Positions 1,509-59,206 of a DNA stretch of 64,000 nt are shown here, piece after piece; position 1 is the stretch's first letter, and each line of letters begins with the position of its first letter. A program made the translations under genes and the position numbers. Below the pieces are notes generated by a model. That model saw only the letters and a program-made list of their open reading frames with translations, ran no database searches and was not told the origin of the DNA. This DNA comes from a virus, in the IMG/VR virus record IMGVR_UViG_3300021963_009993, positions 1-64,000 of that record; one strand, written 5' to 3'.

Positions 1509-1622
1509 ATGGAAGAATATAAACCAACTTGGTGGGAACTTATAATAATGTGGAGTATTATTTTATTAATTCCAGCGTTAATTTTCTGGGCTGGTTATCT
1601 GGTTGGAAAGGATAATAAATGA
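1509..1622 (+). CDS. Small membrane protein (37 aa)
   Basis: GGAG RBS; MEEYKPTWWELIIMWSIILLIPALIFWAGYLVGKDNK; stop overlaps the next ATG. Confidence 0.55.
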   Translation: MEEYKPTWWELIIMWSIILLIPALIFWAGYLVGKDNK

Positions 1623-1966
1623 TTACATTCAAAACATTTATGGAAAACAATTCTTCAAAAGTTTTCTACCATGTAACTACTCAAGAAAATTACCATAAAA
1701 TTATGCAACATGGTCTTGTGCCAAATGTTGGAGCAAGATCGGCAAAATTAGAAGAGCAGCCTCAAATTTTTTTATTTACTGATAAAGAATCGATGGAAGA
1801 TGCAGTTGCAAATTGGCTTGGCGATGAGTTTGACGAGGATAAAGAGCTTGTTGTTTTACAAGTATCTTTACCTCAAGACTTCCCAATTCAAGTAAACGGT
1901 GGAGAGGCTACGACAACAACACCAATTCCTGCAAAATACATTCAATTAACAAACATACAAGTATGA
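1619..1966 (+). CDS. ADP-ribosyltransferase-fold (Tpt1/KptA-like) protein with N-terminal head-targeting-like tag
   Basis: MITFKTFME tag; FYHVT...IMQHGLVP, IFLFTD and VVLQVSLP match the ART-fold strand pattern. Confidence 0.55.
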   Translation: MITFKTFMENNSSKVFYHVTTQENYHKIMQHGLVPNVGARSAKLEEQPQIFLFTDKESMEDAVANWLGDEFDEDKELVVLQVSLPQDFPIQVNGGEATTTTPIPAKYIQLTNIQV

Positions 1967-2139
1967 TCCTTAAACACGCAGCAATCCCTGAAGGAGACAC
2001 ATTCCCAAATGGAACATTCTTTTTTAAGAGAAGAGTTTTTGGATTCTTGTGCCCTCAGAGTGCAGCGTTTAGGACACACCAAGCATTAGGATTTGGGAAT
2101 TGGTACACTAGTCATTGCTGGAAGTTTGAGGATTTGTAA
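1963..2139 (+). CDS. Hypothetical protein (58 aa)
   Basis: ATGA-coupled to the previous gene; open frame MILKHAAIPEG...WKFEDL fills the gap. Confidence 0.4.
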   Translation: MILKHAAIPEGDTFPNGTFFFKRRVFGFLCPQSAAFRTHQALGFGNWYTSHCWKFEDL

Positions 2140-2146
2140 TAATCAG

Positions 2147-2154
2147 CATAAATA
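2147..2154 (+). promoter_or_regulatory. T4-type late promoter (CATAAATA)
   Basis: 6 nt before the ATG of a tagged gene; no SD sequence. Confidence 0.6.
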
Positions 2155-2160
2155 AATATT

Positions 2161-4350
2161 ATGAATTTCAAAGAATGGTTTTTGATTATTGAATCAAAAG
2201 AAGAAAAAGAATTAGCCCTGCAATTAGCTGGAGATCAAGAAATCTTACAGCAATTAAACAACGAAATACCACAAAATCAAAAAGATACTGATAAATTACT
2301 GCTTTTGGCAGCTTATTACTACTCACAAAACAATAATCTCAATCAAATAAAAACGGATATTAAAGACTACATAGCTCTACTTAAAAACAACAGAATTCCT
2401 TTGATAATGGTGGATTTAAAAACCAAAAAGCCACCAAAAGACTATTTGACATGGACTCAAGAAATTCACGGACACCAAGCTGAGGAAGAATTCAAGCAAA
2501 AAAAGAAATACACACCCAGCGATATTGATTTTCAAAGTGAAAAACCAATAATGACTAGTCCAGATGGCAAAATAAAAGTCTATGAATCCAATTCACCACA
2601 ACAATGCATCATACTTGGAAAAGGTCAGAAATTTTGTGTTTCACAACCGGGAAACACAATGTGGAAAAGTTATAGAGATACTAAAGGTAGCACATTTTAC
2701 TTCGTCTATGACTATACAAGAAATGATGAGTTGAGTATCGTGGTTATTGATCAAAACTATCATGGAACACAATTAACAGACATAAGAAACAAAACAGGAA
2801 CAACAAAAGACCCGTTTACTGGCGAAAATACAAACAAACCAGATTCTTATTTAAAGTATCTTCAACAAAATGGAATTGATGTTAAAAAATTGATTAATAA
2901 GCCAAAAACAAAACAGGAAAAACTAGAAGATAAAAAACTAGGGGAAGAGAATGACAAATTGGATTGGTTCGTTTCATTGACACCACAGGAAAAATCAAAT
3001 TACATCGGAAGAGGACATCTTTTGTCCAATAAACAATTTGACTATTTGTGGAAGAACAGATTCATGAGTTTGTTGGAACAATATGTCAAGACTGGATTGA
3101 AATTACAACCATATCAAATAAGCAAAATTGCTACCAATATAGACCTGAAGAAGAATTATGTTCACAACAGAATGATTGCAAACAATCATGATTTTAACAT
3201 AAGTGAATATGAATGGGATTTGTTGAACGATCAACAAAAAAATGAAATTAGTGAATATCCCAAGGCGAATATTAGGAAAGCGTTTGAACTAAACAATAAT
3301 AAACTTATCAAATACTTGGTTGAAAAGGGTGCTGAGATTGGAGATTTGGCAAAAACTGCTGCCATAAACAAAAACATTGACCTTATGAAATATCTGATTG
3401 ACAAGGGTGCGGACATTGAAGGAACCACAGTAGACGATTTAGCCTACTGGGGAGATTTAAGTCTTATGAAATATTTGATTGATGAAAAGAAAGTCAAGTT
3501 TACAGATCGGATACTTACTCAAGCAGCAGGTTCAGGAAACTTAGAACTTGTTAAATATTTAATAAAGAAAGTTGCCAAAATTGAATCCGACACAGTAAGG
3601 TATGCAGCGGATAGTGGTAACTTTGAACTGGTTAAATACTTGGTGGACGAGGGTGGTGAAATCGATGAGCATGCAGTAAGCAGAGCAGCAAAGAGTGGAA
3701 ATCAAGAATTAGTTGAATACCTAGTAGATCGTCATGGCCAAATTGATGATAAAGCCTTGGATAACGCATCAAAAAGTGGAAATTTAGAACTAGTAAAATA
3801 TTTGGTACAAAAAGGTGCCAAGATTGACAAAGAAATAAAACCTACATCAGTATTTAGTATTGATCCTGTTAATTCAGCAATAAGGTCTGGCAATGCCGAG
3901 CTTGTAGAATACTTGGTTGATACAGAAAAAATGCATATGAATAGAACATATGCATTATATCATGCATTGCATTCTGGAAGTGTGCCTTTGGTCAAATATT
4001 TGGTAGACAAAAAACATCTTCCAATTGAAGACAACGCATTGGGAATAGCAGCAAGAGAAGGACACTTGGATTTAACAAAATACTTACTTGATGAAAAACA
4101 TGTGCCCTTAGATGAAAGAATAGTCTCTGAGGCAGCAAGTTCTGGAAACTTAGAACTTGTTAAATATTTAATTGATGTCAAAAAAGCAAAAATACCAGAT
4201 GACACATTACGATATGCCCTGTCCTCAACAAATATGGAACTAATAAAATATCTTGTTGATGAAAAAAATGTCCCAGTAGAAGAAGATGTGGTATTTGAAT
4301 TTTCTAGAAACCCAGAGATAAAACAATATCTCATGAATAAAATTAAATAG
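2161..4350 (+). CDS. Tagged ankyrin-repeat protein, copy 1
   Basis: MNFKEWFLIIE tag; about 13 repeats of type AA.SGNLELVKYLVxxGA; the N-terminal ~360 aa closely match 42656..44332. Confidence 0.9.
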   Translation: MNFKEWFLIIESKEEKELALQLAGDQEILQQLNNEIPQNQKDTDKLLLLAAYYYSQNNNLNQIKTDIKDYIALLKNNRIPLIMVDLKTKKPPKDYLTWTQEIHGHQAEEEFKQKKKYTPSDIDFQSEKPIMTSPDGKIKVYESNSPQQCIILGKGQKFCVSQPGNTMWKSYRDTKGSTFYFVYDYTRNDELSIVVIDQNYHGTQLTDIRNKTGTTKDPFTGENTNKPDSYLKYLQQNGIDVKKLINKPKTKQEKLEDKKLGEENDKLDWFVSLTPQEKSNYIGRGHLLSNKQFDYLWKNRFMSLLEQYVKTGLKLQPYQISKIATNIDLKKNYVHNRMIANNHDFNISEYEWDLLNDQQKNEISEYPKANIRKAFELNNNKLIKYLVEKGAEIGDLAKTAAINKNIDLMKYLIDKGADIEGTTVDDLAYWGDLSLMKYLIDEKKVKFTDRILTQAAGSGNLELVKYLIKKVAKIESDTVRYAADSGNFELVKYLVDEGGEIDEHAVSRAAKSGNQELVEYLVDRHGQIDDKALDNASKSGNLELVKYLVQKGAKIDKEIKPTSVFSIDPVNSAIRSGNAELVEYLVDTEKMHMNRTYALYHALHSGSVPLVKYLVDKKHLPIEDNALGIAAREGHLDLTKYLLDEKHVPLDERIVSEAASSGNLELVKYLIDVKKAKIPDDTLRYALSSTNMELIKYLVDEKNVPVEEDVVFEFSRNPEIKQYLMNKIK

Positions 4351-9785: not shown

Positions 9786-10385
9786 TTAAATCTTGGGAAG
9801 TCTTGGCTTTTCTGGTCTTTTAACAGGCTTCGCATAAGCGTCAGGATTCAACCAACCCTTCTTGCCAAACAACTTGGAATAAATTCCTTCTTCTTCTGCT
9901 GGTTTTGCAGCTGGAGATGCAACTTTCAATTTCATGGAAGTCATATCAATCCACTTCTCAAGGTCTTCTGCTATGAATCTGATTTGTCTTGGCAACTCCC
10001 TCATCTTCTCAGCATGACCCGGATTTTTCAGGGAAGTATAAGGACTGGGGATTCCACAATTGTATGCCTCGCTTTGACGAACATTTACCTCAGCACCAAT
10101 TACTTTTTCTTTTAGCAATGTTAATGTTTTATCAACCATTTTCATGCCATATTGAGATGTTACCATGTTCAACTCACTAACAAGTCCATCCAATATTGTT
10201 TTTGTTTTTTTAATCATGGAATTATGTTGCTGCTTGAATTCTGTACACTCACTCTTGTCTGAATGGTCAATCTTAAGTAATAAATCTTGTAACTTGCTGT
10301 TGCCCTCATTTGCTATGTCAATAGCACCTTGCAAAACATCACTTGAATAAACCGACTCATTTAACCATTCATGAAAGTTTTTCAT
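9786..10385 (-). CDS. Tagged hypothetical protein
   Basis: GGAG RBS then MKNFHEWLNE; start refined from 10397. Confidence 0.75.
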   Translation of the reverse strand: MKNFHEWLNESVYSSDVLQGAIDIANEGNSKLQDLLLKIDHSDKSECTEFKQQHNSMIKKTKTILDGLVSELNMVTSQYGMKMVDKTLTLLKEKVIGAEVNVRQSEAYNCGIPSPYTSLKNPGHAEKMRELPRQIRFIAEDLEKWIDMTSMKLKVASPAAKPAEEEGIYSKLFGKKGWLNPDAYAKPVKRPEKPRLPKI

Positions 10386-10453: not shown

Positions 10454-10723
10454 ATGGACATCAAATTTATCAATTGGCTCAACAACAGACTCTACAACGA
10501 ATACAATATGGCAGATGCAAAAGAAATGGCTGCATCACTAAAAATCGATATTTCAAAATACGATCCAAAAGAATTAGTCATGGGAATCAATGTTGAAAAG
10601 GAACACAACAAAGACAAGGACATTGATGTTGTAAAAAAGAAAGAAGATGTTTTAAAAATAGCCTTGGCACATTTGCGTGAAGACCCCAAGTATTACACCA
10701 AACTCAAAAAAGTAGAAGCATGA
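10454..10723 (+). CDS. DUF5661-like phage protein, tagged
   Basis: LVMGINVEKEH...IALAHLREDPKYYTKL; N-terminus MDIKFINWL. Confidence 0.75.
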   Translation: MDIKFINWLNNRLYNEYNMADAKEMAASLKIDISKYDPKELVMGINVEKEHNKDKDIDVVKKKEDVLKIALAHLREDPKYYTKLKKVEA

Positions 10724-19784: not shown

Positions 19785-19842
19785 TTGATATCATTTGATA
19801 TATTCATAAAAGTTGTTGACTTTCAATAACCCCTTTACACTA
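19785..19842 (+). promoter_or_regulatory. Early promoter; 58-bp exact direct repeat, copy 1
   Basis: TTGATATCATTTGATATATTCATAAAAGTTGTTGACTTTCAATAACCCCTTTACACTA. Confidence 0.85.
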
Positions 19843-45693: not shown

Positions 45694-46387
45694 ATTTGTA
45701 TATTAATTTCCCAATGGATTCCAAGTGTTTGATGGTTGAAGGTTGTTTTTGGTATACAAGAAATACGGTTGGGTATCTATCTTTATGATCATTTTTGTCC
45801 ATTTGTTGCAAATATGATAATTCTCTAACTTGTCTTTTTATCCATTTTTTATATTCTTCAGTATTTTCTGGTGGAGGTGGTGTGATATAAGGATCTAGTC
45901 TATCATTTTTTATATTATTTGAAATGATTTGATCGTTAATTTCTTGTGTAGTTTTATTAGTTTTGATCCAAGTTTCTATTGGTATGGCGATAACATCATG
46001 TCTATTTTTGAATATTGAGTTCCAAAGTCTATAGGCATTTGAGCTTGTGTCATCTTCATTTATGGAGGCGCATGGCATAACACCTTGTTTATTTTGTGTT
46101 GCTAGTTCTAATGCTATTTCGTATAGTGTGGTTCCTATTTTTTTGTTTCTTAGTTGTGGTTCTAGCCAAGCGTTATTGATGCAGGTTGGATTAATATCGG
46201 TTCTGAATTCAACATTTCCTAGTGGTTTTGGTTTTCCGTTTTCATATAGATCTGGTTGTTTTGTAGAATCGAAGAGGTTTATTGTTGTAATATCTTTTCC
46301 ATCCTCGTTTTTTTCTTTAGTTACGACGAACTGAAAGTTATCGAGTGTATCGTATTGTTGTTTAGACAGCCATTCTTTGAATTTCAT
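45692..46387 (-). CDS. Tagged GNAT-fold acetyltransferase-like protein
   Basis: MKFKEWL; INNAWLEPQLRNKKIGTTLYE resembles GNAT motif A; SSNAYRLW. Confidence 0.6.
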   Translation of the reverse strand: MKFKEWLSKQQYDTLDNFQFVVTKEKNEDGKDITTINLFDSTKQPDLYENGKPKPLGNVEFRTDINPTCINNAWLEPQLRNKKIGTTLYEIALELATQNKQGVMPCASINEDDTSSNAYRLWNSIFKNRHDVIAIPIETWIKTNKTTQEINDQIISNNIKNDRLDPYITPPPPENTEEYKKWIKRQVRELSYLQQMDKNDHKDRYPTVFLVYQKQPSTIKHLESIGKLIYK

Positions 46388-46431: not shown

Positions 46432-47682
46432 TTATTCCTTTACTTCAATATCTACATCTTGAGGTACTATGGTATTGGCGAAATCTACATAAACTGATTT
46501 TTCGCTTGGGCTCTTTAGTTCTCTTCCGTCTGGGAATGTTACGGCATGGAATGTAGTTGGGAACTGGTAGAATAGATTTCCCAAGACACTTTCTTTGAGT
46601 ACGGATTTTTGGCGAACGCTTAAGGAGCTATTATCGGTAAATTTGATTAACAAATCGGCCCAGATGGAAGGGCCATCGACGGAAACATATTTTGGTATCA
46701 TATCGAAATCTGCGCCGTGTAGAGTTTTCTTTGCTTGGACAATTGGACCCAATTTGGAAACAATTCTGTGCATGAAAGCAATTTTGATTCCATTGAATAT
46801 TCTTTTAATTTCCTTTTTGGTTTCTTGTTCGGATTTTCCAACGATGTATTTGTACCATGTTTGTTTTTTGGCATCATCGGGATTTATTTTGCCATCTGAA
46901 AGAAGTTTATAATTATTGAGCCATAGATTGTATTTTTCTTCCGTGAATTTTTCTTCCAAGGAGGAGAGCATTTCTTCCAATTTTTGTGTAAGTTTTACAA
47001 GTGTATTTGCATCACCTATTCTATTTGCTTCGGCACTTGCTTGAACTTTTATTTCTTCCTTTTCTCTTGCTTTATCTTCTTTCTTTTGTGTTTTAATTTC
47101 TGTGTTAGCTTTATCTATTTTGGGTAATAATATTTTGAAGTCATGTATAGCTTTGTTGATGATATAGGCTGGTTTTCTTTCTTTTCCCATGCCCATAAAT
47201 GATTTCACATTTGTTTTAACGCCATTGATTTCGACTTCTCTTACGAGGTTTCCTGTTTGAATAAGTTTTTTAATATCTTCAAGTTTTTCTGGGTAGATAT
47301 AATCTGTTGCTTTTGTTGTGTTCAATAGATTGACTGCTTTTTCTATTTCATCGAAAAGTTTTTGATTTTCCGTATCCCCTTCTGGTGGTTTTGGCATTAT
47401 ATTTTTCCAAGTGCCGTATGGTAAAAATTTTATATCGTATGGAGAAGTGCTATTGAGGTTTATAAAATCCTGCATTTTCAAATCGCCAAGTTTGTTTCTT
47501 GCTACTCTTATTGCGCTGGCTGCTTTTTGAGCCCATCTTTTAGTTGGATTCATTTTATCGAAGCTTGATTCGATATAATCCAAATCTGCCAACAAGTCAG
47601 TCATATCATTTTTGAGTTGATTGACATCAGATTTTTCGGAATTTTCTTCGTTTACAAGAAGCCAATTTTTAAAATTTAGCAT
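46432..47682 (-). CDS. Tagged protein; C-terminal domain shared with 54492..55952
   Basis: MLNFKNWLLVNEE; RI..KLGPIV...F.D.SS.SV...FYQFPTTFH.V..P.G..LK.PS..SVY..FA. Confidence 0.8.
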   Translation of the reverse strand: MLNFKNWLLVNEENSEKSDVNQLKNDMTDLLADLDYIESSFDKMNPTKRWAQKAASAIRVARNKLGDLKMQDFINLNSTSPYDIKFLPYGTWKNIMPKPPEGDTENQKLFDEIEKAVNLLNTTKATDYIYPEKLEDIKKLIQTGNLVREVEINGVKTNVKSFMGMGKERKPAYIINKAIHDFKILLPKIDKANTEIKTQKKEDKAREKEEIKVQASAEANRIGDANTLVKLTQKLEEMLSSLEEKFTEEKYNLWLNNYKLLSDGKINPDDAKKQTWYKYIVGKSEQETKKEIKRIFNGIKIAFMHRIVSKLGPIVQAKKTLHGADFDMIPKYVSVDGPSIWADLLIKFTDNSSLSVRQKSVLKESVLGNLFYQFPTTFHAVTFPDGRELKSPSEKSVYVDFANTIVPQDVDIEVKE

Positions 47683-47750: not shown

Positions 47751-49154
47751 TTATTTATATTGGATCATATCATTCAATACTGATGTCAATTCTTGGGTTT
47801 GTTCTGGTGTCAATTGGATGAGTGGTTTATCGTTGATTGTGATGGTATTTCCTTTGAGTTTAACGGTTTCAGATCCGTTGGTTAATTGTTTATTGACATT
47901 GAAGTATTTTGCGGTAACTTCTCTTGCTTTTTTTCTCCAATCAATTCTTGGTGGTGCTGTGCCGAAGATAGGAGTTTCTGTTGATTCAGATTTAATTCCT
48001 GTCAATTGTTGCATTTGTTGAGGATTAAGAGTTAATGTATAGTCGCCTCTTGATCCGTGGAATTTTAATTGTCTTCCTACTAAATCTAAGTTTATTTTGC
48101 CTAGGACATAAGATTTGATTTGTTTTGGTTGCTGGCTAGCGTCACCGACAAGCAAACAGTAATCACCGCCTTTTGTCTGTACGCAGAATTTGTCGCCTGA
48201 ATTGAGCGGGGTTTTGTTGTTTGGTGTTAGTTGTTTACCATTGAGTGTAAATGTGTTTCTTTTTGTTTTGACAACTGCATACCATTGTTTTTCATCGAGG
48301 TATGTGAAGGTGATGGGTGGATCGTTTTTATCGATGATTGCTGATCTTAGTTCTCCGGGCCATTTTAATGTTATTGAATCATGAACAAATCTTGTTGGTG
48401 ATAGTTTGAAAGTTCTTGGTTCGTTTGCAAAATTGATTGGGTTCATAACTAGCGGAGGTGCTTTAATCACCTTATCAGATATATCTCTGCCTGAAATCTT
48501 GGCTTGGTAAAGGCTTTTGACGCTGGTTCCTTTCATGGTATTTTTCCATTCAAGGTTATTGATTGTAGATGGATCAAGATTAATGTTATCACTTTCCGCA
48601 TAACCAAGGAATTTTACACCATCTTCGACTGGGGGGTATTTAAGGATACAAAGCCCGAATCTTGGTCCTGATAGACCCATGTCCATGTAGATGGCACCTT
48701 TTAAATTTTTCTCACACCAGTTTTTATAATTTCCTAAAAAACTGTCGTTCATATTTTTATCGTAATCATTTAGTTTTTCTTGCCAATCCGGTCCGGCTTC
48801 TTTTTTCCAACTCTCTAGAACCTTGAGTTTTTTGAGTTGGCTGCTGACTAGGTAATCTGGGCCGTGCATTTTCATCGCTTCATTTTTTGAGAGGACAAGG
48901 AAGTTTTCTAGTCCTGATATTTTCCATTTTGTAATATATCTGCCATAGTCTTCTGCATGTGAAGTGAATTGCGACTCTAGGTTTACCATAGTGTATAGAC
49001 CGCATCCGAGGGCGCATCCACCGGATTTACCTGCTTCAAATATTTGCGATATGAGAGATGATACGGTTCCTAGGTCTGTAGTTCTGTGGTAAACGACAGC
49101 GGTGTTGTTTTGCAGATATAGTTCTTCAGTAAGTAGCCATTGTGAAAAGTTCAT
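47751..49154 (-). CDS. Tagged PARP/ART-like protein with a possible FHA-like C-terminal region
   Basis: MNFSQWLLTEE; VVYHRT...GCGLYT...YGRYI; later FTLNGKQLTPNNKTPLNSGDKF. Confidence 0.55.
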   Translation of the reverse strand: MNFSQWLLTEELYLQNNTAVVYHRTTDLGTVSSLISQIFEAGKSGGCALGCGLYTMVNLESQFTSHAEDYGRYITKWKISGLENFLVLSKNEAMKMHGPDYLVSSQLKKLKVLESWKKEAGPDWQEKLNDYDKNMNDSFLGNYKNWCEKNLKGAIYMDMGLSGPRFGLCILKYPPVEDGVKFLGYAESDNINLDPSTINNLEWKNTMKGTSVKSLYQAKISGRDISDKVIKAPPLVMNPINFANEPRTFKLSPTRFVHDSITLKWPGELRSAIIDKNDPPITFTYLDEKQWYAVVKTKRNTFTLNGKQLTPNNKTPLNSGDKFCVQTKGGDYCLLVGDASQQPKQIKSYVLGKINLDLVGRQLKFHGSRGDYTLTLNPQQMQQLTGIKSESTETPIFGTAPPRIDWRKKAREVTAKYFNVNKQLTNGSETVKLKGNTITINDKPLIQLTPEQTQELTSVLNDMIQYK

Positions 49155-49160
49155 AATGTA

Positions 49161-49189: not shown

Positions 49190-49272
49190 TGGTGAGAGAG
49201 GGATTCGAACCCCCGAAGGCATAAGCCGTCAGATTTACAGTCTGATCCAATTGTCCACTCTGGCATCTCACC
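49190..49272 (-). tRNA. trnY: tRNA-Tyr (GTA), long variable arm, CCA not encoded
   Basis: GGTGAGA/TCTCACC acceptor stem, TCAGA-CTGTAAA-TCTGA anticodon arm, GGGGG-TTCGAAT-CCCTC T arm. Confidence 0.95.
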
Positions 49273-49297
49273 ATGATTTTAATTGAGTGGAATTAGT

Positions 49298-49693
49298 TTA
49301 AATCTTTCTGGCGATTATACCTTTGGATGTGATTATTTTTTCTGTAGTTTTTTGTGGGTTTGTTATTGGGTATCCCCATTTACCTTTATTTGATATATTG
49401 TATGGGGAATCTTTATCAACGAGGTGTTTGTCTTGATCTTTTTTGAATTCATTTTCATTGTTGTAGAATTTTGGTTTATTGAAAGTGGCGTAGCCAACTA
49501 GTGTTGCTGGGCCTTTTCCGGTTCGTATGATACCAACTTTTTTGTTTACATATGGGTTGAGTGATGGTGTATCTCTGGTTTCGATGGTTTTTTCACCTGC
49601 CATTATTTGTTTGGTGAATGGTTGGTGTTTATCGTTTATATTGATGCCGATTTTGGGTTGGTCGTTTTCTTTTAGCCATAGTTTAAAGTTCAT
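49298..49693 (-). CDS. Tagged ASCH-domain protein
   Basis: MNFKLWLKE; IMAGEKTIETR...LVGYATF...WGYPITNP. Confidence 0.8.
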   Translation of the reverse strand: MNFKLWLKENDQPKIGININDKHQPFTKQIMAGEKTIETRDTPSLNPYVNKKVGIIRTGKGPATLVGYATFNKPKFYNNENEFKKDQDKHLVDKDSPYNISNKGKWGYPITNPQKTTEKIITSKGIIARKI

Positions 49694-49713: not shown

Positions 49714-49881
49714 ATGAAAACATTTATGGAATGGTTGAATGAGTACAATGCGCCTAGGGCTGGGATGAAGTCTCGTTGGTCTGTTAAGTACAAGAAGTCT
49801 ATTAATTGCAGTAATCCCAAGGGATTCAGTCAGAAGAATTATTGCAAGCGCAAGAAGCGTGGTGGTGGTTATCGTTCTTGA
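49714..49881 (+). CDS. Tagged small basic protein (WSxKYKKSIxCxNPKGFSQ family)
   Basis: Missed by the ORF track (55 aa): MKTFMEWLNE...RWSVKYKKSINCSNPKGFSQKNYCKRKKRGG. Confidence 0.8.
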   Translation: MKTFMEWLNEYNAPRAGMKSRWSVKYKKSINCSNPKGFSQKNYCKRKKRGGGYRS

Positions 49882-51170
49882 CTTGGTTGTGCTTGATCTT
49901 TTTTAAGTATTTTTATTTGTTTTGGGTCGAACACGGCGATATTACTTGCGCCTCTTTCTTTTGTCATAATTGAGTCGAATCCTTGTTTTTTGATGAAGTC
50001 TATGATTGGTTTTGATTCGACGAATCTCCAGCTTTTGTTTTCAATTCTCCAGAGGATGTGTTCTATTGCATCTTCGATTGTTTGGACTGGTTGGTTTGTT
50101 TTTGGGTTGTTTAATGTTGGCGAGATGTTGAAATTAGCCCCTGTAACTGGGTCTTTGTATTTGTTTTCGATTGCTTTTTTGATTGCTGGGACGAGTATGA
50201 GTCGATGTTTTTCATCTTGTGGTTTGAATGGATTTTTGGCATTGAGGCAAGCTGTGAATACATTTCCTTTTGATGTTTCGCCTGCGAACCCTTCGCCTGT
50301 AGCGAACATGTGTGCGAATTTCGGATCATCTGTGAAGTAGATGGTGCCGTAGTAGTTTGATTTGCCGGGATCGAAGTTATCGAAATCTTTTTGTGTGCCG
50401 TGGTAGACTGGTCCGAATAGTCCATCGCATTGGTTTTCTTCCTGTAGGGTGAGGAATGTTTTGAAAGAGAAATCTAGTGATGGGTTGTATGAATCGCCTG
50501 TGAATCTTTGTTGGAAGGCTTTTAGGTCACCTCTGGTATTTGCGAATGGTGATTGGTAGTATCTGCCTCTGACTTCCTTTTCATCTGTATCGACATTTGA
50601 TTTGACTGAGAATGGTTCGTAGAGGATATCTTTTACTTTTTCTGTCCATTTTCTTTTTGTTGTGTAGTCGAAAATGTTGACATCGATGTCATCGAATATT
50701 TGTTCATTGTCCATGTATTTTGGTTTTTCTTTTATTTTATTGATGCAATCAGCTAGTTGTTTCTTTTTGTCTTGTCCCCAATCTGCCAATTCGACATTGT
50801 TGTTTCTGGTTAGTATGAATCCGAATTTTTTTACACCGTCGCCAACGGTGTCATATTTCTTTGAATCGAGGGTGGAATATTTGGAATAGAAGTCGTATAG
50901 TGGCCATTTTTTGATATTGGGTTGGAATTTTTCAATGAATCTGACTGTTTCTGGGAATATCCAACCTACGCTTTTTAGATCTTTGATTTTGCTTAGTTCG
51001 CTTGGATTTGCTTCGTTGATGTGTTCATCGATAGTTGGCATGAATCTTTCTTTGAAGTCTTTGATAATGAGTATGTTTGTAGCGATGCCGTGGTCACCGC
51101 TACCGACAACATTGACATCGATAAGTTCTTTGGTGTTTGGGTTGTATAGATGTTCGCCTAGTTCGTTCAT
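49869..51170 (-). CDS. Two-part protein with C-terminal ART-PolyVal-like ADP-ribosyltransferase domain
   Basis: VYHGT..DF..FD...GTIYFTDD...A..FA...NVF...LN.KNP...GFDSI...IAVFDPKQIK; an internal tag-like FSFKTFLTLQEE precedes it. Confidence 0.75.
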   Translation of the reverse strand: MNELGEHLYNPNTKELIDVNVVGSGDHGIATNILIIKDFKERFMPTIDEHINEANPSELSKIKDLKSVGWIFPETVRFIEKFQPNIKKWPLYDFYSKYSTLDSKKYDTVGDGVKKFGFILTRNNNVELADWGQDKKKQLADCINKIKEKPKYMDNEQIFDDIDVNIFDYTTKRKWTEKVKDILYEPFSVKSNVDTDEKEVRGRYYQSPFANTRGDLKAFQQRFTGDSYNPSLDFSFKTFLTLQEENQCDGLFGPVYHGTQKDFDNFDPGKSNYYGTIYFTDDPKFAHMFATGEGFAGETSKGNVFTACLNAKNPFKPQDEKHRLILVPAIKKAIENKYKDPVTGANFNISPTLNNPKTNQPVQTIEDAIEHILWRIENKSWRFVESKPIIDFIKKQGFDSIMTKERGASNIAVFDPKQIKILKKDQAQPSQER

Positions 51171-51234: not shown

Positions 51235-51966
51235 ATGAATTTTAAATCTTGGTTTTTGAATGAAGAGAGTGGTGGCAAGGAGTATTGGGGTCCATTCAGT
51301 TATGTCACAAGGGAAGGTGATTATCTTAGGGTGACGGCAGATTTGTTGGACAAACCGCTTTACATACCTGTTAATGGCGGTGTCACATATGTTGAAAAGT
51401 ATCCTTTAGATAAGCGTTTGAATCCACCTTGGAACAAGTATTTTCGTTATTCTGTTTCCGGTGATGGCAGGTATGTTGTCAATTATGTCGAGAACAGGGC
51501 TGTTGATTGTGTTTGTTATTCGCCAAAGTATGATGCTATTTATTTGATAAACCGCAAAGCATCTCCTGTTGGTTTGGCTATTCCCGGCGGTTTTTTTGAT
51601 ACGCATGACGGAATTGATTCAAACAATCCAACTGATCCAGAATCTATTGGAAGAAAAGCAGCTGCCAGAGAGTTGCAAGAAGAGACTGGGGCGAAAATAA
51701 ATCCCGGTGAGCTTTCTTATATTGGTCGTTTTAGGACGGGTGATTCTGACAGCAGGGAAAAGAACTTCTATGTGTGGGCTTACTTCTACAGGGTGCCAGA
51801 TGAAAGTATTCGTTCTTTCAAGTTTGGTGATGATGCTGGTCAGGCACCGGGTAGTCCTTCTTTGCAGCGTGATGGTTTGAAGGGTTGGTACAAGTTGGAT
51901 GAGATTCCAAGTCTGGCATTTCCCCATCACATGGACATCATAAAACAAGCTACCCATCTTGTGTAA
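51235..51966 (+). CDS. Tagged Nudix hydrolase (ADP-ribose pyrophosphatase-like)
   Basis: MNFKSWFLNEE; AVDCV...LAIPGGF...AAARELQEETG...FGDDA...LAFPHH. Confidence 0.85.
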   Translation: MNFKSWFLNEESGGKEYWGPFSYVTREGDYLRVTADLLDKPLYIPVNGGVTYVEKYPLDKRLNPPWNKYFRYSVSGDGRYVVNYVENRAVDCVCYSPKYDAIYLINRKASPVGLAIPGGFFDTHDGIDSNNPTDPESIGRKAAARELQEETGAKINPGELSYIGRFRTGDSDSREKNFYVWAYFYRVPDESIRSFKFGDDAGQAPGSPSLQRDGLKGWYKLDEIPSLAFPHHMDIIKQATHLV

Positions 51967-52133: not shown

Positions 52134-52194
52134 TGATGTCGATGGGACTTGTGTCCTGTCGAGCCAAGTTAATTTATCAATGGAGTGATTTGTC

Positions 52195-52674: not shown

Positions 52675-52702
52675 TTTTTATTTAACACAAGGAGGAATTG
52701 TC

Positions 52703-53476
52703 ATGGGTATCAAGACTGAGATTGCGTGGACTGAAAGCACCATCAACTTTTGGTGGGGTTGCTGCAAAGTTTCCGAGGGTTGCAAGCATTGCTATGCCGA
52801 AAAGGACAATGATCGTTATCAATTGGCAGAGTGGGGACCAGACACTTTGCGTACATGGATTAAGACCTGTTATGCGAATGCCAGCAGAGCCAACAAGATT
52901 GGTAGGGAGAGTGGCATCAAGAGAAGGGTCTTTACCTTGTCTATGGGTGATTTCTTTGAAACTCATGCTGTTTTGGATGAGTATCGTGCTAGGGCTTGGA
53001 AGCACATCAAATCTTTGACTCATATCAATTGGCTAGTGTTGACCAAGCGTCCAGAGAACATTGCTTCGATGTTGCCAAAGGATTTCCATAATGGTGACTA
53101 CAAGCATGTTCATTTGGGCACTACTTGTGAGCATGAGAAGTATGTTGATCGTTTGGATTATCTTCGTGATATTCCTGAGTGGGGAGGAATCCGTTGGGTA
53201 AGTTACGAGCCTGCTCTGAGTCCTATTGATCATGTTGTTGATTTGACCAAGATTGATTGGTTGATTTATGGTGGGGAGAGTAGTCGTAGTTATCTTGGGT
53301 TCCGCAAGGACAATGATGAGTGGGCTAGGAGGATCAAGGTTTTGTGTGAGAAGGAGGGTACTGTTTTCTTTTACAAACAAAATAGTGGTTTGAAAAGGAA
53401 GCTACTCAAGAAGTTGGATGGTGTTCAGCATTACAATTTCCCAGACTTTGACAAGAATCATCTGGAAGTTGTTTAG
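52703..53476 (+). CDS. DUF5131 / phage Gp37-Gp68 family protein
   Basis: TEIAWT..T.N.WWGC.KVSEGCKHCYAE, LTKRPEN, WVSYEP, IDWLI.GGES, FFYKQ. Confidence 0.9.
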   Translation: MGIKTEIAWTESTINFWWGCCKVSEGCKHCYAEKDNDRYQLAEWGPDTLRTWIKTCYANASRANKIGRESGIKRRVFTLSMGDFFETHAVLDEYRARAWKHIKSLTHINWLVLTKRPENIASMLPKDFHNGDYKHVHLGTTCEHEKYVDRLDYLRDIPEWGGIRWVSYEPALSPIDHVVDLTKIDWLIYGGESSRSYLGFRKDNDEWARRIKVLCEKEGTVFFYKQNSGLKRKLLKKLDGVQHYNFPDFDKNHLEVV

Positions 53477-53937
53477 TATCCTTCTTCAACTTCTATGATT
53501 TCGGCTGCGTTGGTCAGGTATTCCCATACGCTTTCATTAGGGTGTGGGATGCCTGACCAATAGTTATTTGCTGCTTCGATTACTTCCATGCTATTTTCAT
53601 CATGGCCCGATGACAGAAGACTTTCTATTTCTGAATTCCAATTGACATCATGTCTTTCTACTTTCCCCAACGGTTTTAGTTTGAATATCCAATCTGTAAC
53701 GGCACCTGCCAATTCTAGATCATCTGTGTTATCTGTCATGAATACTGCATCTTTGTGAGATATCATGTTCTTTGGTCTATATTTTTCCAGTATTTTGTAC
53801 CAAGGATTAAATCCCCAATCTTTTTCGTATTGTTCAGTCCTACCTTTCAATATTGTTCCTACTGGTATTTCTTTTGAACTACCATGAAAGAAAATACGGG
53901 ATTCAATGCTTTCCAAGAACTGTTTGAATGTTTTCAT
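53473..53937 (-). CDS. Tagged Arr-like ADP-ribosyltransferase-fold protein
   Basis: MKTFKQFLE; FFHGS...VG.IL...AVFMT...IFKLKP.G.VE...WEYL. Confidence 0.55.
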   Translation of the reverse strand: MKTFKQFLESIESRIFFHGSSKEIPVGTILKGRTEQYEKDWGFNPWYKILEKYRPKNMISHKDAVFMTDNTDDLELAGAVTDWIFKLKPLGKVERHDVNWNSEIESLLSSGHDENSMEVIEAANNYWSGIPHPNESVWEYLTNAAEIIEVEEGY

Positions 53938-53940: not shown

Positions 53941-54489
53941 TTAGATTGTTCGTATTCCCTTGTTAGTCAATTCAAATTTCATATTTATTTTGAATGGTTG
54001 TACTTGGTTTTCACCTAATTTGTGTACTTGCATGCCTTTGGTATCGAGCATTTTTTGCAGGTTTCCACCCTTGCTGAATTTGCCTACTGCTGCCATGACA
54101 TCCCTTGTGACCATTTGTTTTGCCTGTTGTTCATTTTCGGCATTTACTATTGCATTTACTTCTACAACCAAAGCGGTTTGACCTTGTTCTTTTGATTCTA
54201 TTATTTCGATGTTGAATTCTGAGTAGTATGCTTTTGATTGTGCGTGGTGTTTGATTGTTTCCTTGAGTGAATTAATAGATCTGATGTTAATTTCATCGGC
54301 TTGGATATTTTGATGAATGGCTGGTTTTTCGTTATAGCTTTGTGATTGCACCATGTATTGTTGTAGGTTGTTGTTTTTTGCTTGTGCAGCACTAGCCATG
54401 CCTAAACCAGCTGCCAGACCCAAGGCACCTGTTTTCAATAGGTTTTCATCATATTGTTCTTGATTTTCTAGCCAGTTTTTGAATTGCAT
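53941..54489 (-). CDS. Tagged protein with an internal signal-peptide-like segment
   Basis: MQFKNWLE...DENLLKTGALGLAAGLGMASAAQA. Confidence 0.7.
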   Translation of the reverse strand: MQFKNWLENQEQYDENLLKTGALGLAAGLGMASAAQAKNNNLQQYMVQSQSYNEKPAIHQNIQADEINIRSINSLKETIKHHAQSKAYYSEFNIEIIESKEQGQTALVVEVNAIVNAENEQQAKQMVTRDVMAAVGKFSKGGNLQKMLDTKGMQVHKLGENQVQPFKINMKFELTNKGIRTI

Positions 54490-54491: not shown

Positions 54492-55952
54492 TTATCCTAA
54501 GTCATTTACTTCTGTTTCTTCATCTTTTTCTATTTCAGGTGGTTTATCGAGTCCAGCGAATGCTAGGTAAACGGACATTGCCGATGGGTGTTTGAGTGAT
54601 TCACCATTTGGCAATATTACATTGTGGAATGTGGTTGGGAATCTATAGAATCGTTTTCCACCACCTGAGCTAAACATGGCACCTCTTCTTGCACCACTTA
54701 TGGCTGCGACCATTTTGTGAACTACGCTGAAGGATGAGCCGTCAGCGAATTGGATTTTCAATCTAGCTTCTAGTGATCCATAATTTGCGCTTGAATAAAT
54801 CAATTTGATATTGGCTTGTTTGCCTGTCGTTGCAGCTTTCTTGGCAACTATTGGTGCCAATTTTCCTGTGATGCGACTGAAGAATATTTGTGATACATTT
54901 CTCCATGATTGTTCTGCCACCTTTTCAAGCTTATCCTCTGGTGGTCTTGTAAATGCATCATCTTTGGTAACAACTAATTGTGCGCCTAGTGGATATCTTG
55001 CTCTCAAATCCCTCTTCATCTTGATGGCAGGTTCTGAATAATCTCTTGGTTTTGGTGAACTGGCGATGAACTTGTCTATTTGTTCATTTGCCACTATCAA
55101 GAAATTTTTCTTGTATTCATCTTTTTGATTTGACAATAGAACATCGATTTCCTTTCCAAGTTCTTCTACAGCCTTAAAAGATATAACGGGAGTTTCTGCT
55201 CTTACTTTTTCTGCTGCGACTTCCTTGGCTTTTACTTTTTCTTTTTGAGCTTCTTCTTTCTTTTCTCTCTTGATATCTGCATCTTTTTTAGCTTTGCTTT
55301 GGATGTTTTCCTTGATGAAATCGGATAGTGTCTTCCATAAATTACCAGCATCTTCCATCCAATCTGCTATGCTTACTACCTTGCCAGATTTGAGTTGAAC
55401 ATTCATGAGTGCTTCTGTATTTGGATAGTTTTCTGCTTTTTCGCCTTCTATTGGCTTCATGAATGGGAAGTCATTTGCGTATTTGGCATACTTCTTCAAA
55501 TTTTTAGCTATTTTTTCAGAATTGGGTGATACTCCTTGAGCCCATAAAAATTGAATAAATGCATCTTTGTATTTGTTCCAATTTTCAAATTTGTCTGTGC
55601 CTAAAGCTTTGTAGAAAGGATTTGGTTTTCCATCTACTTCTGGGTTATTTTGGTTATCAAGTCCACGATATCCTCCACCGGACTGAAGGGGCAATGGAAC
55701 AAGATTGTGTACTGTTACTGCTCTGTATATATTTGTTGCGAAATCGGGATGGACTTTGAATTTTTCTTTTGCAGCATTTAATTCTGAATTAGGGACAACA
55801 TCCTTGTTTTTCAATTCCATCAATTCTTTCATTCCCATATCGATTTCTGCTGAACTTTTTTCATCAAGGTATGCTTTCACTTTGTTTACGGCATTGGCCA
55901 GATCTGATTCTGTTGTTGCCTCTGTGATAATTAGCCAGTCTGAAAAGTTCAT
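54492..55952 (-). CDS. Tagged protein; C-terminal domain shared with 46432..47682
   Basis: MNFSDWLIITE; FYRFPTTFHNV.LPNG..LK.PS..SVY..FA. Confidence 0.8.
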   Translation of the reverse strand: MNFSDWLIITEATTESDLANAVNKVKAYLDEKSSAEIDMGMKELMELKNKDVVPNSELNAAKEKFKVHPDFATNIYRAVTVHNLVPLPLQSGGGYRGLDNQNNPEVDGKPNPFYKALGTDKFENWNKYKDAFIQFLWAQGVSPNSEKIAKNLKKYAKYANDFPFMKPIEGEKAENYPNTEALMNVQLKSGKVVSIADWMEDAGNLWKTLSDFIKENIQSKAKKDADIKREKKEEAQKEKVKAKEVAAEKVRAETPVISFKAVEELGKEIDVLLSNQKDEYKKNFLIVANEQIDKFIASSPKPRDYSEPAIKMKRDLRARYPLGAQLVVTKDDAFTRPPEDKLEKVAEQSWRNVSQIFFSRITGKLAPIVAKKAATTGKQANIKLIYSSANYGSLEARLKIQFADGSSFSVVHKMVAAISGARRGAMFSSGGGKRFYRFPTTFHNVILPNGESLKHPSAMSVYLAFAGLDKPPEIEKDEETEVNDLG

Positions 55953-55990: not shown

Positions 55991-56773
55991 ATGAAAAGTT
56001 TTATGAATTGGCTTAGAGAGAGTTATGCTCCTAGAAACCTTAATTGGTTGCTTGTTAGAAATTACTTGAAGAATGCTGAAAAGAATTTTGATGTTTTGGA
56101 CAGTTGGGAGCAGTTCAAGAACTGGGATGAATCCGAGGAGATAGCCAACAATCTTTCTTTGGATTTGGAAGATGAAGACAAACTTTATGACAATGCTGCA
56201 AAAATAAACAAGTACATGATGGATAATCCAGAATTACTGGATAATTTTTTATATCAATATTTGGATAGTGAAGAATCGCCTGCTTATTTGAATATGAATT
56301 ACATTAGAGATTTACCGCCAAACACATGGTTGGTTCATTTTTCAGACAAGGCTGGCAATATTGCCGACGATGGTTTCAAGCATGGTGTCTCAGATGTTAG
56401 GAAAATGCATTACACTAGGGGAGAAACCTACAGCAGTAGGACATCTGATTCTGGTTACAATTTTGCTTTTTTGGCTAATTCAAAAGAGGCAGCTTCAGCA
56501 GCCAAGGATTCCAAGTATGGTTCTGATGCGGTTATGTTCATGAGTGCTGGTGTTTTGACCTATCATGCTGGTGATAACGAGAATCAAGTTGTGTTTGATG
56601 GAACTAATGTAAAGCCAAAAGACATAGTGTATTTGGAAAGAACTGCGTATGACTGGGTTGTCAAGTCAAAGGATTCAAATAAAAGAGATCCATATATAAA
56701 CAACGATTTCGGGGAAGTTGTTAAATGGGTCATGAACAACTGGCAGCAGTATAGAAAAATAATAATGGGATAA
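55991..56773 (+). CDS. Tagged protein, possible ART-fold C-terminal half
   Basis: MKSFMNWLRE; WLVHFSD...I..DGF..G...YNFAF...YG..AVMF...E.QVVF. Confidence 0.55.
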   Translation: MKSFMNWLRESYAPRNLNWLLVRNYLKNAEKNFDVLDSWEQFKNWDESEEIANNLSLDLEDEDKLYDNAAKINKYMMDNPELLDNFLYQYLDSEESPAYLNMNYIRDLPPNTWLVHFSDKAGNIADDGFKHGVSDVRKMHYTRGETYSSRTSDSGYNFAFLANSKEAASAAKDSKYGSDAVMFMSAGVLTYHAGDNENQVVFDGTNVKPKDIVYLERTAYDWVVKSKDSNKRDPYINNDFGEVVKWVMNNWQQYRKIIMG

Positions 56774-56774: not shown

Positions 56775-57122
56775 ATGCAATTCAAAAAGTGGCTAATAGA
56801 ATCCAGATTTAATGACATGCATTCGTGGTTGGATGTTAGTGGGGAATTTCATCCGGTTACTGCAACTACCCATTCTGATGACGCAGTAAAGTATTCTGAT
56901 TATACTAATAGTGCTGAAGCCAAAGATGATCTGATGAAAAGGGGTTGGCAAAGGGTTAGTCACTACAATCATATTCTTTATGTTGCGAATCCTATTGTTG
57001 CTCCCAACAGGGTTCAGAAGAGTGAGCTTGTTGATTTGGCTTTGACTAGGGATTTGCGTAAAGTTGTGTATGACAATGATGTGAGTGAAATTGTTTTGTG
57101 GGATGCTTCTGAAAAATTTTAA
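56775..57122 (+). CDS. Tagged hypothetical protein
   Basis: MQFKKWLIE; WLD.SG.F...H...LMKRGWQRV. Confidence 0.75.
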   Translation: MQFKKWLIESRFNDMHSWLDVSGEFHPVTATTHSDDAVKYSDYTNSAEAKDDLMKRGWQRVSHYNHILYVANPIVAPNRVQKSELVDLALTRDLRKVVYDNDVSEIVLWDASEKF

Positions 57123-57500: not shown

Positions 57501-57609
57501 TGTAATCTGTTGTAGTGGTTTCGGCTTCTGGTTCTTGTTCCATAATTGCCTCCTGAATTTATATATAAGATGAATTTTAAAGATTAATTTAATTAGAGAT
57601 AGGTTTATA

Positions 57610-58101
57610 ATGTTTAATATGCGTTTCATTGATTTTATGGAAAACAATGTTGAAGACTATTTTGATTCTTCTGCCTTGTCTATGGCCAAAAATCAAGGCA
57701 GCAAGTCGAGAGAGTTATTGATTGACATGTCTATTGATGATTTCTTGAGATTGGCAGAAGAAGGTCGTAGTTTTTCCAAGGAATCAGGTGTTGATTCTTT
57801 GTTGTCTAAGGGCATTAAGTTTGAGAGTATACCTTTTTTGGGTGTTGGTTTTTATTCAGGTGATCCTTTGGCGATGAAGGTCAAGAGTCATGAGGGAAGG
57901 CATAGGGCTAGGGCTTTGAGGAAACTTGGATTCAAGATGATGCCTGTGAAAGTGGTACATGATTCGATACGGTGGGGTGGTCAATTAAATCCCAATAATT
58001 ATGATTATGTTGATAATTTTCCCACTCATTTTGTATCTGAGGATGGTTCTGTTGTTGTGCCATTTGCGATAACAAGAGAGGATTTGAATGATAGATTTTA
58101 A
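57610..58101 (+). CDS. Tagged ParB/sulfiredoxin-like protein
   Basis: MRFIDFME; VKSHEGRHRARALRKLG...MPV. Confidence 0.65.
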   Translation: MFNMRFIDFMENNVEDYFDSSALSMAKNQGSKSRELLIDMSIDDFLRLAEEGRSFSKESGVDSLLSKGIKFESIPFLGVGFYSGDPLAMKVKSHEGRHRARALRKLGFKMMPVKVVHDSIRWGGQLNPNNYDYVDNFPTHFVSEDGSVVVPFAITREDLNDRF

Positions 58102-58729
58102 AACATGGCTTGAGAATGTTTCTACTGATGAAACTAAAGTTTCAGGTTATTCACAGGATGGCACTAGTGTTGTTCCCCAAAGTGAATGGAAGAATCTGAT
58201 AATTGATGCCATTTTTGAATTGCCTGTTGACAGGCGTTTTCAATGGTCTATACCAGTTAAAAAAATAGCTGAGGGCTCTCAGGCCAACATATACAGCACA
58301 ATAGATCCGAGAAAAGTCATAAGGATATCAAGGGAAAACAAAGAAAATGCATGTGAGAAGGCGATAAATGATCCTTTGTTACAAGCAACTGGTGGTGTCA
58401 ACAAGGTTTACGATCATATTGTCTACAACAAATACATTATTACCTTGAAGGAAAAGCTCAGGACAAATTGGTATGATATTTTGCGTAAAAAGTATTCAGG
58501 CAATAGACAAGTATGGCATCTTCTGGACAAGATTTATACATTTTATGCAACAAAAAACCTTGCTGACTTTGATGAAATACTTATTGATATGAGCAAGGTG
58601 CCAGAGATGAAGAATTTGGTGGAAGCAATCAAAGTTGGAAAGACTATTCCTTTATTTACTATGCGGGATTTGCATGATGAGAATTTTGCCTTGGATAAAG
58701 ACGATAATATAGTGATTATTGATTGTTAG
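58088..58729 (+). CDS. Tagged protein-kinase-like (PKL fold) enzyme
   Basis: MIDFKTWLE; Gly-loop-like IAEGSQANIY, VIRI, catalytic RDLHDEN, terminal VIID. Confidence 0.7.
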   Translation: MIDFKTWLENVSTDETKVSGYSQDGTSVVPQSEWKNLIIDAIFELPVDRRFQWSIPVKKIAEGSQANIYSTIDPRKVIRISRENKENACEKAINDPLLQATGGVNKVYDHIVYNKYIITLKEKLRTNWYDILRKKYSGNRQVWHLLDKIYTFYATKNLADFDEILIDMSKVPEMKNLVEAIKVGKTIPLFTMRDLHDENFALDKDDNIVIIDC

Positions 58730-59010
58730 ATGTTTAGGTTATTGGGGGTTGGAGGTACTTCTCTGTCCACCATGTACCACAAAACGCAGTTGTTATCGAT
58801 AAGAATATAGGGTCTTGGTTTCACGATATTGTCTGTATCTGTGAAGAAACCCAAGGGATCTGTTCCAGAGTATTGTTGAACAGTTTGAGTGTTAAAAACT
58901 ATTTGGTTTTTTAGTGGATATCTTCTAACCCAAGATGAATCTGGCAATATAACATCTACTTCAAAACCTACTGGCATTGTTATTGTTGCGAAATTTTCTT
59001 CTTGTGACAT
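58726..59010 (-). CDS. Hypothetical protein
   Basis: AAGGAG RBS. Confidence 0.7.
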   Translation of the reverse strand: MSQEENFATITMPVGFEVDVILPDSSWVRRYPLKNQIVFNTQTVQQYSGTDPLGFFTDTDNIVKPRPYILIDNNCVLWYMVDREVPPTPNNLNI

Positions 59011-59020
59011 GGGATCTCCT

Positions 59021-59206
59021 TTACTTTAAGATAGTTAATTTTTTTGAAAGTATTTGCAGGAGTTTGCCCAATCTGATCATCTCTGGTTCATTGATTATGT
59101 TTGGTTCCAATTCATTCAATTTTTCTTTGATTTCCTTGATGTTCTTTTCTATGAATTTTCTTGAATCCATAGATTTAGTTTGAAACCATTGTTTGAAGTC
59201 AAGCAT
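59021..59206 (-). CDS. Tagged small coiled-coil protein
   Basis: MLDFKQWF; AATAAATA 4 nt upstream. Confidence 0.65.
   Translation of the reverse strand: MLDFKQWFQTKSMDSRKFIEKNIKEIKEKLNELEPNIINEPEMIRLGKLLQILSKKLTILK

Follow-up and report, generated by a model that had tools for sequence, protein, structure and literature searches.

The window analysed here is the first 64 kb (64,000 nt) of the 181,260-bp virus record IMGVR_UViG_3300021963_009993 of IMG/VR. It carries a series of genes whose products start with a common short peptide tag, M-x(1-4)-F-x-x-[W/F]-[L/F/M/I/V]-x(0-3)-E. The existence of this shared tag was confirmed. We read it as the version of the phage T4 capsid targeting sequence (CTS) used by this phage clade and the tagged proteins as head cargo, and we put the probability of this reading as a whole at roughly 0.65. 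The phage would then probably package an unusually large and fast-changing protein cargo, encoded by at least 24 genes in the window, at least 34 in the 181-kb record and about 45 in a 595-kb relative, and perhaps inject it. ART-fold, NUDIX and ankyrin proteins would belong to this cargo.

Genes of the whole record were predicted with a simple codon-model caller, which gave 232 genes (91% coding), 95 of them in the window; it under-calls genes in the window block 28000-42600 and missed the tagged 55-aa open reading frame (ORF) at 49714. All 24 N-terminal peptides listed in an earlier note on this DNA were found to begin ORFs of 55 to 729 aa at the positions and on the strands given for them (Table 1). 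Searching gene starts with the pattern ^M.{0,4}F..[WF][LFMIV] identified 34 of the 232 genes as tagged, including 25 in the window. Among these 25, genes 14132 (hydrophobic, membrane-like start) and 29178 (early block, no Glu) are probable false positives. Shuffling whole proteins led to an expectation of 1.1 tagged starts (maximum 5) and shuffling the first 20 residues to 2.0 (maximum 7), so that the motif is clearly enriched over the shuffled controls that the note had proposed as a check. Moreover, only 5 of 1003 internal Met positions fitted the pattern (Fisher p 6e-21). An origin of the motif by chance or low complexity was ruled out by the shuffles together with the internal-Met control. 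Synonymous codons vary at the conserved positions (Phe: TTT 22, TTC 12; Leu: all six codons), and the conservation therefore concerns the peptide and not the DNA. Looser variants containing Tyr also exist, for example MKSFLNYLEE adjoining the portal gene.

The CTS of T4 reads MKTYQEFIAE (PMC8442874) and is the sole conserved part of the hypervariable internal proteins of T-even phages (PMC3012670). Suppressor studies assigned its residues 4 and 7 to targeting and residues 8 and 10 to processing by gp21, which cleaves after L/I-x-E (PMC9026906). The tag consensus consists of an aromatic residue at position 3-4, a second one three residues further, an aliphatic residue at +4 and a Glu 1-4 residues after that. 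The likeness to T4 pointed out in the earlier note thus extends to the four residues that were shown experimentally to matter, less uniformly at the two processing positions. Phe occupied residue 3-4 in 26 of 33 tags and was followed three residues on by Trp or Phe. Glu was present at +5 to +8 from the first aromatic in 25 of 33 tags, compared to a background of 23% at random positions (p 1e-10). Two residues before the tag Glu (P3), L/I/V was found in 17 of 29 tags and an aromatic residue in 10. MKTFREFVE, MKTFKQFLE and MKTFTEWLE differ little from the T4 peptide.

The same record encodes the head proteins expected for such a system. Portal protein, Peptidase_S77, an acidic protein and Gp23 are arranged in T4 order. 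The gp21-type Peptidase_S77 (Pfam, 100.8 bits; record 129421-130092) is located between the portal and scaffold genes. The putative scaffold, a 301-aa acidic protein without Pfam match between the protease and capsid genes, contains 19 [LI]-x-E sites. The Gp23 capsid protein (294.8 bits) carries L-I-N-E at residues 45-48, the end of its predicted propeptide, with the Pfam domain starting at residue 56. L/I-N-E recurs in the protease, in the scaffold, in the N-terminal part of the portal protein and in many tags. A gp21-type protease, a putative scaffold and a gp23 with candidate cut sites, for which the earlier note had suggested a search elsewhere in the genome, are present, and their cleavage is predicted. 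A tagged 109-aa acidic protein is encoded next to the portal gene (record 127126-127455).

Cargo sharing a prohead with an L/I-x-E protease should avoid this motif in its body. In the tagged bodies, the observed/expected ratio of [LI]-x-E was 0.88 compared to 1.29 in the other proteins (p 0.014), and seven control motifs displayed no comparable deficit. In the nearest relative, LR756511, the ratios were 0.98 for tagged and 1.17 for other proteins (p 0.056), which is the same direction with a weaker effect.

Expression signals differ in part between the tagged genes and other classes. An early, sigma-70-like promoter family (AAGTTGTTGAC-N-TACACTA) occurs in five copies in the window by pattern, and a sixth, looser copy upstream of 32633 was found by eye. 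None of the early-type promoters of the window precedes a tagged gene, as the earlier note had stated. Structural genes exhibit ATAAATA about 17-30 nt 5' of the ATG, followed by a Shine-Dalgarno (SD) sequence. TAAATA or TATATA at a distance of only 1-6 nt from the ATG without SD was observed in 12 of 34 tagged genes compared to 5 of 198 other called genes. A looser count of late-type elements within 16 nt of the ATG gave 13 of 34 tagged versus 11 of 187 untagged genes (p 2e-6), and in LR756511 12 of 45 versus 28 of 1009 (p 2e-8). A normal SD, with no late-type element close to the ATG, was observed in 19 of the 34. ATG-proximal elements also precede MNFKEW... ORFs in many other IMG/VR contigs. 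The T4 late motif, a TATAAATA-type element, is located at -13 to -6 (PMC1524935); at this distance, an element abutting the ATG would place the mRNA start at or next to the AUG. This suggests that late mRNAs of many tagged genes are leaderless. In three divergent tagged pairs the ATGs are separated by merely 17-38 nt (49693/49714, 20 nt; 55952/55991, 38 nt; record 140401/140419).

Parts of this arrangement recur as blocks. Genes 44332 and 46387 have a 48-nt promoter-plus-tag cassette in common that is 96% identical, and three consecutive cargo genes share a 64-nt terminal element with a terminator hairpin (75-84% identical). The shared 5' cassette and 3' element point to a cassette-like build of these genes. 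The untagged genes 52195 and 52703 within the cargo array are preceded by a different upstream element (52169-52213 and 52677-52721) with a strong SD, which points to a distinct expression class lying among the cargo genes.

The bodies behind the tag are diverse. The earlier note had described them as unrelated, which holds at the BLAST level except for the ankyrin paralogues 2161 and 44332 and a C-terminal domain shared by 47682 and 55952. Pfam and PHROGs assignments comprised one NUDIX protein, two ankyrin proteins, DUF5661 and a sub-threshold PGDYG match, while the rest are orphans; a PHROGs search with 20 tagged proteins returned only four weak or uninformative matches. Median net charge of the cargo is about 0 and hence not especially basic. 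The note's wider proposal of a virion-packaged arsenal of dozens of enzymes stands in part. The fit to the CTS, the head module and the late-type elements argue for virion cargo. In contrast, "dozens of enzymes" exceeds the evidence because most tagged proteins are orphans, with few named by Pfam or PHROGs and one recognized by folding as ART-fold plus FHA.

This latter protein (47751-49154) had 51 database matches, and all 38 full-length homologues that were aligned keep the tag. In the resulting 39-sequence alignment F3, W6 and E10 do not vary at all, in contrast to wholly different C-terminal halves that include FHA, NUDIX, ankyrin and long repeat arrays. AlphaFold2 modeling with this alignment predicted the tag as a short helix (residues 3-9) with a predicted local distance difference test (pLDDT) value below 50, detached from the first domain, and an FHA domain with a Z of about 10-11. 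The N-terminal domain modeled on its own reached a pLDDT of 79 and a predicted template modeling score (pTM) of 0.79. Nearly all of its top 50 Foldseek matches belonged to the ART superfamily (ParT, MbcT, PARPs, tankyrases, cholix, diphtheria-type and pertussis toxins), every E-value being weak (0.04-0.4), and the VIA Z to MbcT and ParT was 7.2. When the family was inspected for an H-Y-E or R-S-E catalytic triad, H23, R24, T25 and Y54 were invariant and the third triad position corresponded to a variable E/Q in P-V-E/Q-D-G. A search of PDB sequences with the family profile gave no match, including none to a solved ART. On the basis of the model the N-terminal domain appears to be ART-fold, which is not proven. 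The tagged proteins 53937 and 1619, which look ART-like, were unrelated to the family profile in hhalign. ESM Atlas returned nothing for 55952, and for 45589 only viral hypothetical clusters and a weak ART-PolyVal lead at 0.81. At least four paralogues of the tagged ART-fold family are encoded on one 89,919-bp contig (P0012, P0017, P0023 and P0028). Their C-terminal arrays consist of long variable repeats of ~34 residues (...DKDKIAELII.K.PELSD.NV..LL...) and look like diversifying target-binding modules.

The NUDIX protein 51235 provided a second family in which the tag could be followed. Among 22 database matches, all 21 full-length ones start with the tag, and the Met-to-Phe and Leu-to-Glu spacings change by insertions and deletions. 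In one homologue, an additional domain separates the tag from NUDIX, and the tag has kept its place at the very start of the protein. The tag of the most distant homologues, [FY]-x-x-[FY]-I-x-E, is nearer still to the T4 sequence. Judged from these alignments, the tag behaves as a portable N-terminal module whose position is independent of the body. The untagged protein 49869-51170, in which the tag-like peptide FKTFLTLQEE stands just before ART-PolyVal, gives a hint that a tagged module may become joined to the end of another domain; here, a tagged ART gene was perhaps fused in this way. A widespread family of small tagged proteins with the continuation ...G-x-K-x-G-L-Y-P... occurs at the IMG/VR loci L032, L040, L053, L077 and L089 and in LR756511 at 71311 and 502604. 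A tblastn search of deposited phages with this family gave no match, and no cultured carrier is known.

Comparison with relatives placed the record among very large phages. Its Gp23-family capsid protein shares 77% identity with the one from LR756511.1 (595 kb, an unannotated "uncultured phage"), but no more than 30-35% with the counterparts in XacN1, Flavobacterium and Microcystis phages and cyanophages. Together with a CheckV completeness of 38%, this indicates that the record is a piece of a roughly half-megabase, uncultured T4-core phage. Megablast of 22 kb of the window against cultured and deposited phages gave no match. Near-identical DNA is present in public runs of estuary, marine and freshwater metagenomes. 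Homologues in LR756511 existed for only 4 of the 34 tagged genes compared to 61 of 177 untagged genes (p 0.008), although this relative contains 45 tagged genes of its own, with about 6 expected. The predicted cargo set is thus hypervariable, with a quick turnover between relatives while the tag is kept. Contigs of four runs covered the window from 42 to 60 kb in patches and provided nothing informative on cassette exchange.

The tag is not restricted to these two phages. An exact IMG/VR scan for MNFKEW[LF] resulted in 87 matches, 50 of which coincided with the initial ATG of an ORF encoding 50 aa or more, in many cases followed by [LI]-x-E. Five such contigs of 40-101 kb were only 12-30% complete according to CheckV and are therefore fragments of huge phages. 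In five large records (373-527 kb, four of them at least 97% complete), the degenerate tag occurred 38-41 times compared to 10-24 times in the reversed control. Two of these records were positive for S77, two contained Gp23 but no detectable S77, and one contained neither.

Table 1. Tagged genes and associated elements in the window. Genes on the minus strand are referred to in the text by their higher coordinate.
Feature	Position	Strand	Length (aa)	N-terminal peptide	Remarks
Tagged ORF	1619..1966	+	115	MITFKTFME	Orphan
Tagged ORF	2161..4350	+	729	MNFKEWFLIIE	C-terminal ankyrin repeats; CATAAATA-type element 2 nt from ATG (6 nt counting first ATAAATA only), no SD
Tagged ORF	9786..10385	-	199	MKNFHEWLNE	Orphan
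Tagged ORF	10454..10723	+	89	MDIKFINWL	Glu not nearby; DUF5661
Tagged ORF	17335..17853	+	172	MKTFREFVE	Closest to T4 CTS; PGDYG-like, 26.7 bits, cut-off 27 (sub-threshold)
Tagged ORF	17885..18700	+	271	MEFSNWLIKE	CATAAATA 5 nt before ATG
Tagged ORF	18687..19277	+	196	MKNYNFKTWINLKE	
Tagged ORF	25836..26390	-	184	MTNFSEWL	First [LI]-x-E-type site at residue 17
Tagged ORF	42656..44332	-	558	MNFKEWFIITE	Ankyrin paralogue of 2161, 57% identity
Tagged ORF	44396..45589	-	397	MQSFKQWLLNE	Orphan
Tagged ORF	45692..46387	-	231	MKFKEWL	48-nt 5' cassette in common with 44332
Tagged ORF	46432..47682	-	416	MLNFKNWLLVNE	C-terminal domain in common with 55952
Tagged ORF	47751..49154	-	467	MNFSQWLLTEE	ART-fold (16-201, predicted), then FHA (230-345)
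Tagged ORF	49298..49693	-	131	MNFKLWLKE	Divergent from 49714
Tagged small ORF	49714..49881	+	55	MKTFMEWLNE	
Untagged ORF	49869..51170	-	433		Pfam ART-PolyVal 254-424; internal tag-like peptide at 236-245
Tagged ORF	51235..51966	+	243	MNFKSWFLNE	NUDIX
Tagged ORF	53473..53937	-	154	MKTFKQFLE	
Tagged ORF	53941..54489	-	182	MQFKNWLE	
Tagged ORF	54492..55952	-	486	MNFSDWLIITE	Orphan
Tagged ORF	55991..56773	+	260	MKSFMNWLRE	Divergent from 55952
Tagged ORF	56775..57122	+	115	MQFKKWLIE	
Tagged ORF	57610..58101	+	160-163	(MFN)MRFIDFME	
Tagged ORF	58088..58729	+	213	MIDFKTWLE	
Tagged ORF	59021..59206	-	61	MLDFKQWF	First site F-I-E at residue 20
5' cassette	44315..44362	-			Late-type promoter element, 6-nt spacer, ATG, first tag codons; further copies 46370-46417 (96%), 49137-49184 (69%)
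3' element with terminator hairpin	42589..42652	-			Copies 44334-44397, 45630-45693
Early-type promoter	19810..19842	+			AAGTTGTTGAC-N-TACACTA; others 16458, 20223, 23237, 30940

Several other features were observed in and around the tagged genes. The window block 28000-42600 has a G+C content of 41-46% compared to about 35% elsewhere, and its codon use also differs. It encodes a MoxR/CbbQ-like AAA ATPase (31021-32310), a VWA/CobT-like protein (32633-34708), a UvrD-type helicase with a Top1 zinc ribbon (36995-38779) and another zinc-ribbon protein; two of its genes are preceded by early-type promoters. An untagged 757-aa protein with five DUF5122 beta-propeller repeats and a Rax2-like propeller is encoded amid tagged genes (5489-7762, minus strand). 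The cargo array also harbors a tRNA-Tyr (GTA) gene (49189-49273, minus strand). Its read depth in public runs was many times that of the flanks, as expected of a conserved tRNA. Outside the window and away from the head module, a ClpP-family gene (CLP_protease; record 73380-73874, minus strand) adjoins a gene of the poly(A)-polymerase/CCA-adding type, with no unfoldase beside it.

The head-cargo reading implies the following course of events. Tagged genes would be transcribed late, many of them from a gp55-type TAAATA/TATATA element abutting the ATG and hence as leaderless mRNAs. The tag, a short N-terminal amphipathic helix, would bind the scaffolding core of the assembling prohead, and the gp21-type serine protease would cleave after the tag Glu. 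The mature protein would be retained in the head with the DNA and be available for ejection into the host. We infer scaffold binding, cleavage, packaging, ejection and an effector role from the sequence.

A number of observations weigh against this reading. The phage is uncultured and the case is built from sequence alone, no cultured relative with a virion proteome being known to carry the tag; the public runs listed as containing the window are DNA runs only (estuary, marine, fresh water), with no RNA run among them. About one quarter of the tags lack a Glu within 8 residues; it follows at +10 to +13 of the first aromatic in four tags and is absent from the 13 residues after this aromatic in four more. 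In about one third of the Glu-bearing tags, the Glu directly follows W-L or F-L, which results in an aromatic P3 instead of Leu/Ile. The [LI]-x-E depletion is modest and weaker still in the relative. Cargo of 486-729 aa would have to unfold in order to traverse the tail tube. In the cultured jumbo phage XacN1, whose gp23-type capsid protein is only distantly related, the tag was not enriched (17 versus 24 in the control). Finally, a search with the S77 protease of the record itself detected no relative in three tag-rich genomes without an S77 match, and a ClpP-family gene was present in all five tag-rich genomes tested (the record and four others). As ClpP occurs in all five and S77 in some, co-occurrence does not single out gp21.

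This distribution, with S77 in only two of the five large records, fits a tag that is recognized by another machine unrelated to the capsid, such as a ClpP degron, a chaperone or localization signal, or the site of a modifying enzyme. We consider this unlikely. A degron leaves both the Glu 5-8 residues downstream with its Leu/Ile at P3 and the [LI]-x-E depletion of the bodies unexplained, and the ClpP gene lies outside the head module and lacks an adjoining unfoldase. The radical-SAM form of the modifying-enzyme variant is disfavored because two tag-rich genomes of 97-100% completeness contain no such enzyme. Furthermore, recognition by any other machine would turn the residue-for-residue fit to the tested positions of the T4 CTS into a coincidence. 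We attach still less weight, as a highly improbable explanation, to the idea that the 5' end is conserved as a nucleic-acid or translation signal, namely as a recombination cassette or a leaderless-initiation sequence with the peptide as by-product. The strong association of tagged genes with a promoter-like element 1-6 nt from the ATG without SD, the nearly identical 48-nt cassette in two genes and the prevalence of Lys/Asn with A-rich codons at residue 2 are in line with it. However, the conserved Phe and Leu are specified by freely varying synonymous codons, conservation of Trp, Phe and Glu is seen at the amino-acid level, and two protein families keep the motif while its spacing to the ATG shifts by 1-4 codons. 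The majority of tagged genes with ordinary SD and no late-type element close by also speaks against it.

Head-targeted proteins might instead act within the capsid, as core, inner-body or DNA-condensing components, or be degraded and expelled, and not serve as injected effectors. The tagged 109-aa acidic protein beside the portal gene would suit such a role, since its position resembles that of the T4 core proteins gp67 and gp68. Most of the cargo lacks a recognizable enzymatic domain, and very large heads are known to contain internal protein bodies (PMC9026906). In contrast, ART-fold plus FHA, NUDIX, ART-PolyVal and ankyrin are typical of host-directed effectors and not of structural proteins (PMC5512222), and fast turnover between relatives suits conflict genes more than structural parts. 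A purely capsid-internal fate seems improbable to us on balance.

Beyond the head-cargo reading, we propose tentatively, with odds clearly below even, that in huge aquatic T4-like phages the CTS has become the basis of a general cargo-loading system. It would use a portable element of ~35-45 nt composed of a gp55-type late promoter, a 4-6-nt spacer, AUG and tag, which would at once yield a leaderless late mRNA and direct the product to the capsid. Captured genes that come to lie behind this element by recombination would become packaged cargo. If true, this would explain 50-100 fast-turnover cargo species per genome, including the expanding ART-fold plus FHA families. The cassette would be the smallest known unit for late expression and encapsidation and of practical interest for loading proteins into phage capsids. 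The largest T4-like phages would bring dozens of pre-made proteins into the cell in a set that differs by lineage, which would amount to a large and as yet unexplored source of candidate proteins for host takeover and anti-defence and help to explain some of the many extra genes in half-megabase phages. Moreover, the address tag allows candidate virion cargo to be listed from metagenomic phage sequences. We regard the scale, the compact cassette with predicted leaderless transcripts, and the tagged ART-fold plus FHA family with its paralogue expansions as the most interesting parts.

The phrase "capsid targeting" did not occur in the top 20 papers on huge or jumbo phages that our search returned; the CTS has been suggested previously as a possible general loading mechanism (PMC9026906). 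Several known systems resemble the one described here. In the phiKZ-like jumbo phages (phiKZ, 201phi2-1, SPN3US), which also have a very large head, many proteins are trimmed after Glu by the prohead protease and partly ejected (PMC9026906, PMC7411985). A gp21-related protease cuts their ejection and inner-body proteins at S/A-x-E. These phages are not of the gp23/T4-core type, and their propeptides are long and mutually unlike with no common short address described, whereas the tagged proteins share one short motif. Polyvalent proteins and MuF-fused effectors (Iyer et al. 2017, PMC5512222) likewise contain ART-PolyVal, NUDIX-associated and ankyrin modules for which delivery with the DNA was proposed. 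There, a single giant polypeptide, anchored to a head protein, strings many domains together, in contrast to the separate tagged genes found here; the two-part protein 49869-51170 with its internal tag-like peptide is one case in between.

The closest counterpart is the CTS system of T4 itself. Common to both are an N-terminal peptide of ~10 residues in which aromatics stand at ~4 and ~7, followed by an aliphatic residue at ~8 and, in most of the tags found here, a Glu at ~10; a protease of the gp21 family, gp23 and a scaffold, the latter putative in the present record; and hypervariable cargo with the tag alone conserved. One cargo family is apparently ART-fold, and T4 Alt is an ART. The differences concern number and design. 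While T4 has a handful of such proteins, 24 are encoded in 64 kb here, and a whole genome probably encodes 50-100. The second aromatic residue is Trp where T4 has Phe, and the distance between the aliphatic residue and Glu varies from 0 to 3 residues. The predicted cargo, known from genes alone, reaches 729 aa and is not especially basic, and many of its genes look leaderless with a late promoter abutting the ATG. The CTS concept is known from T4; new are the number of tagged proteins and the promoter-plus-tag cassette.

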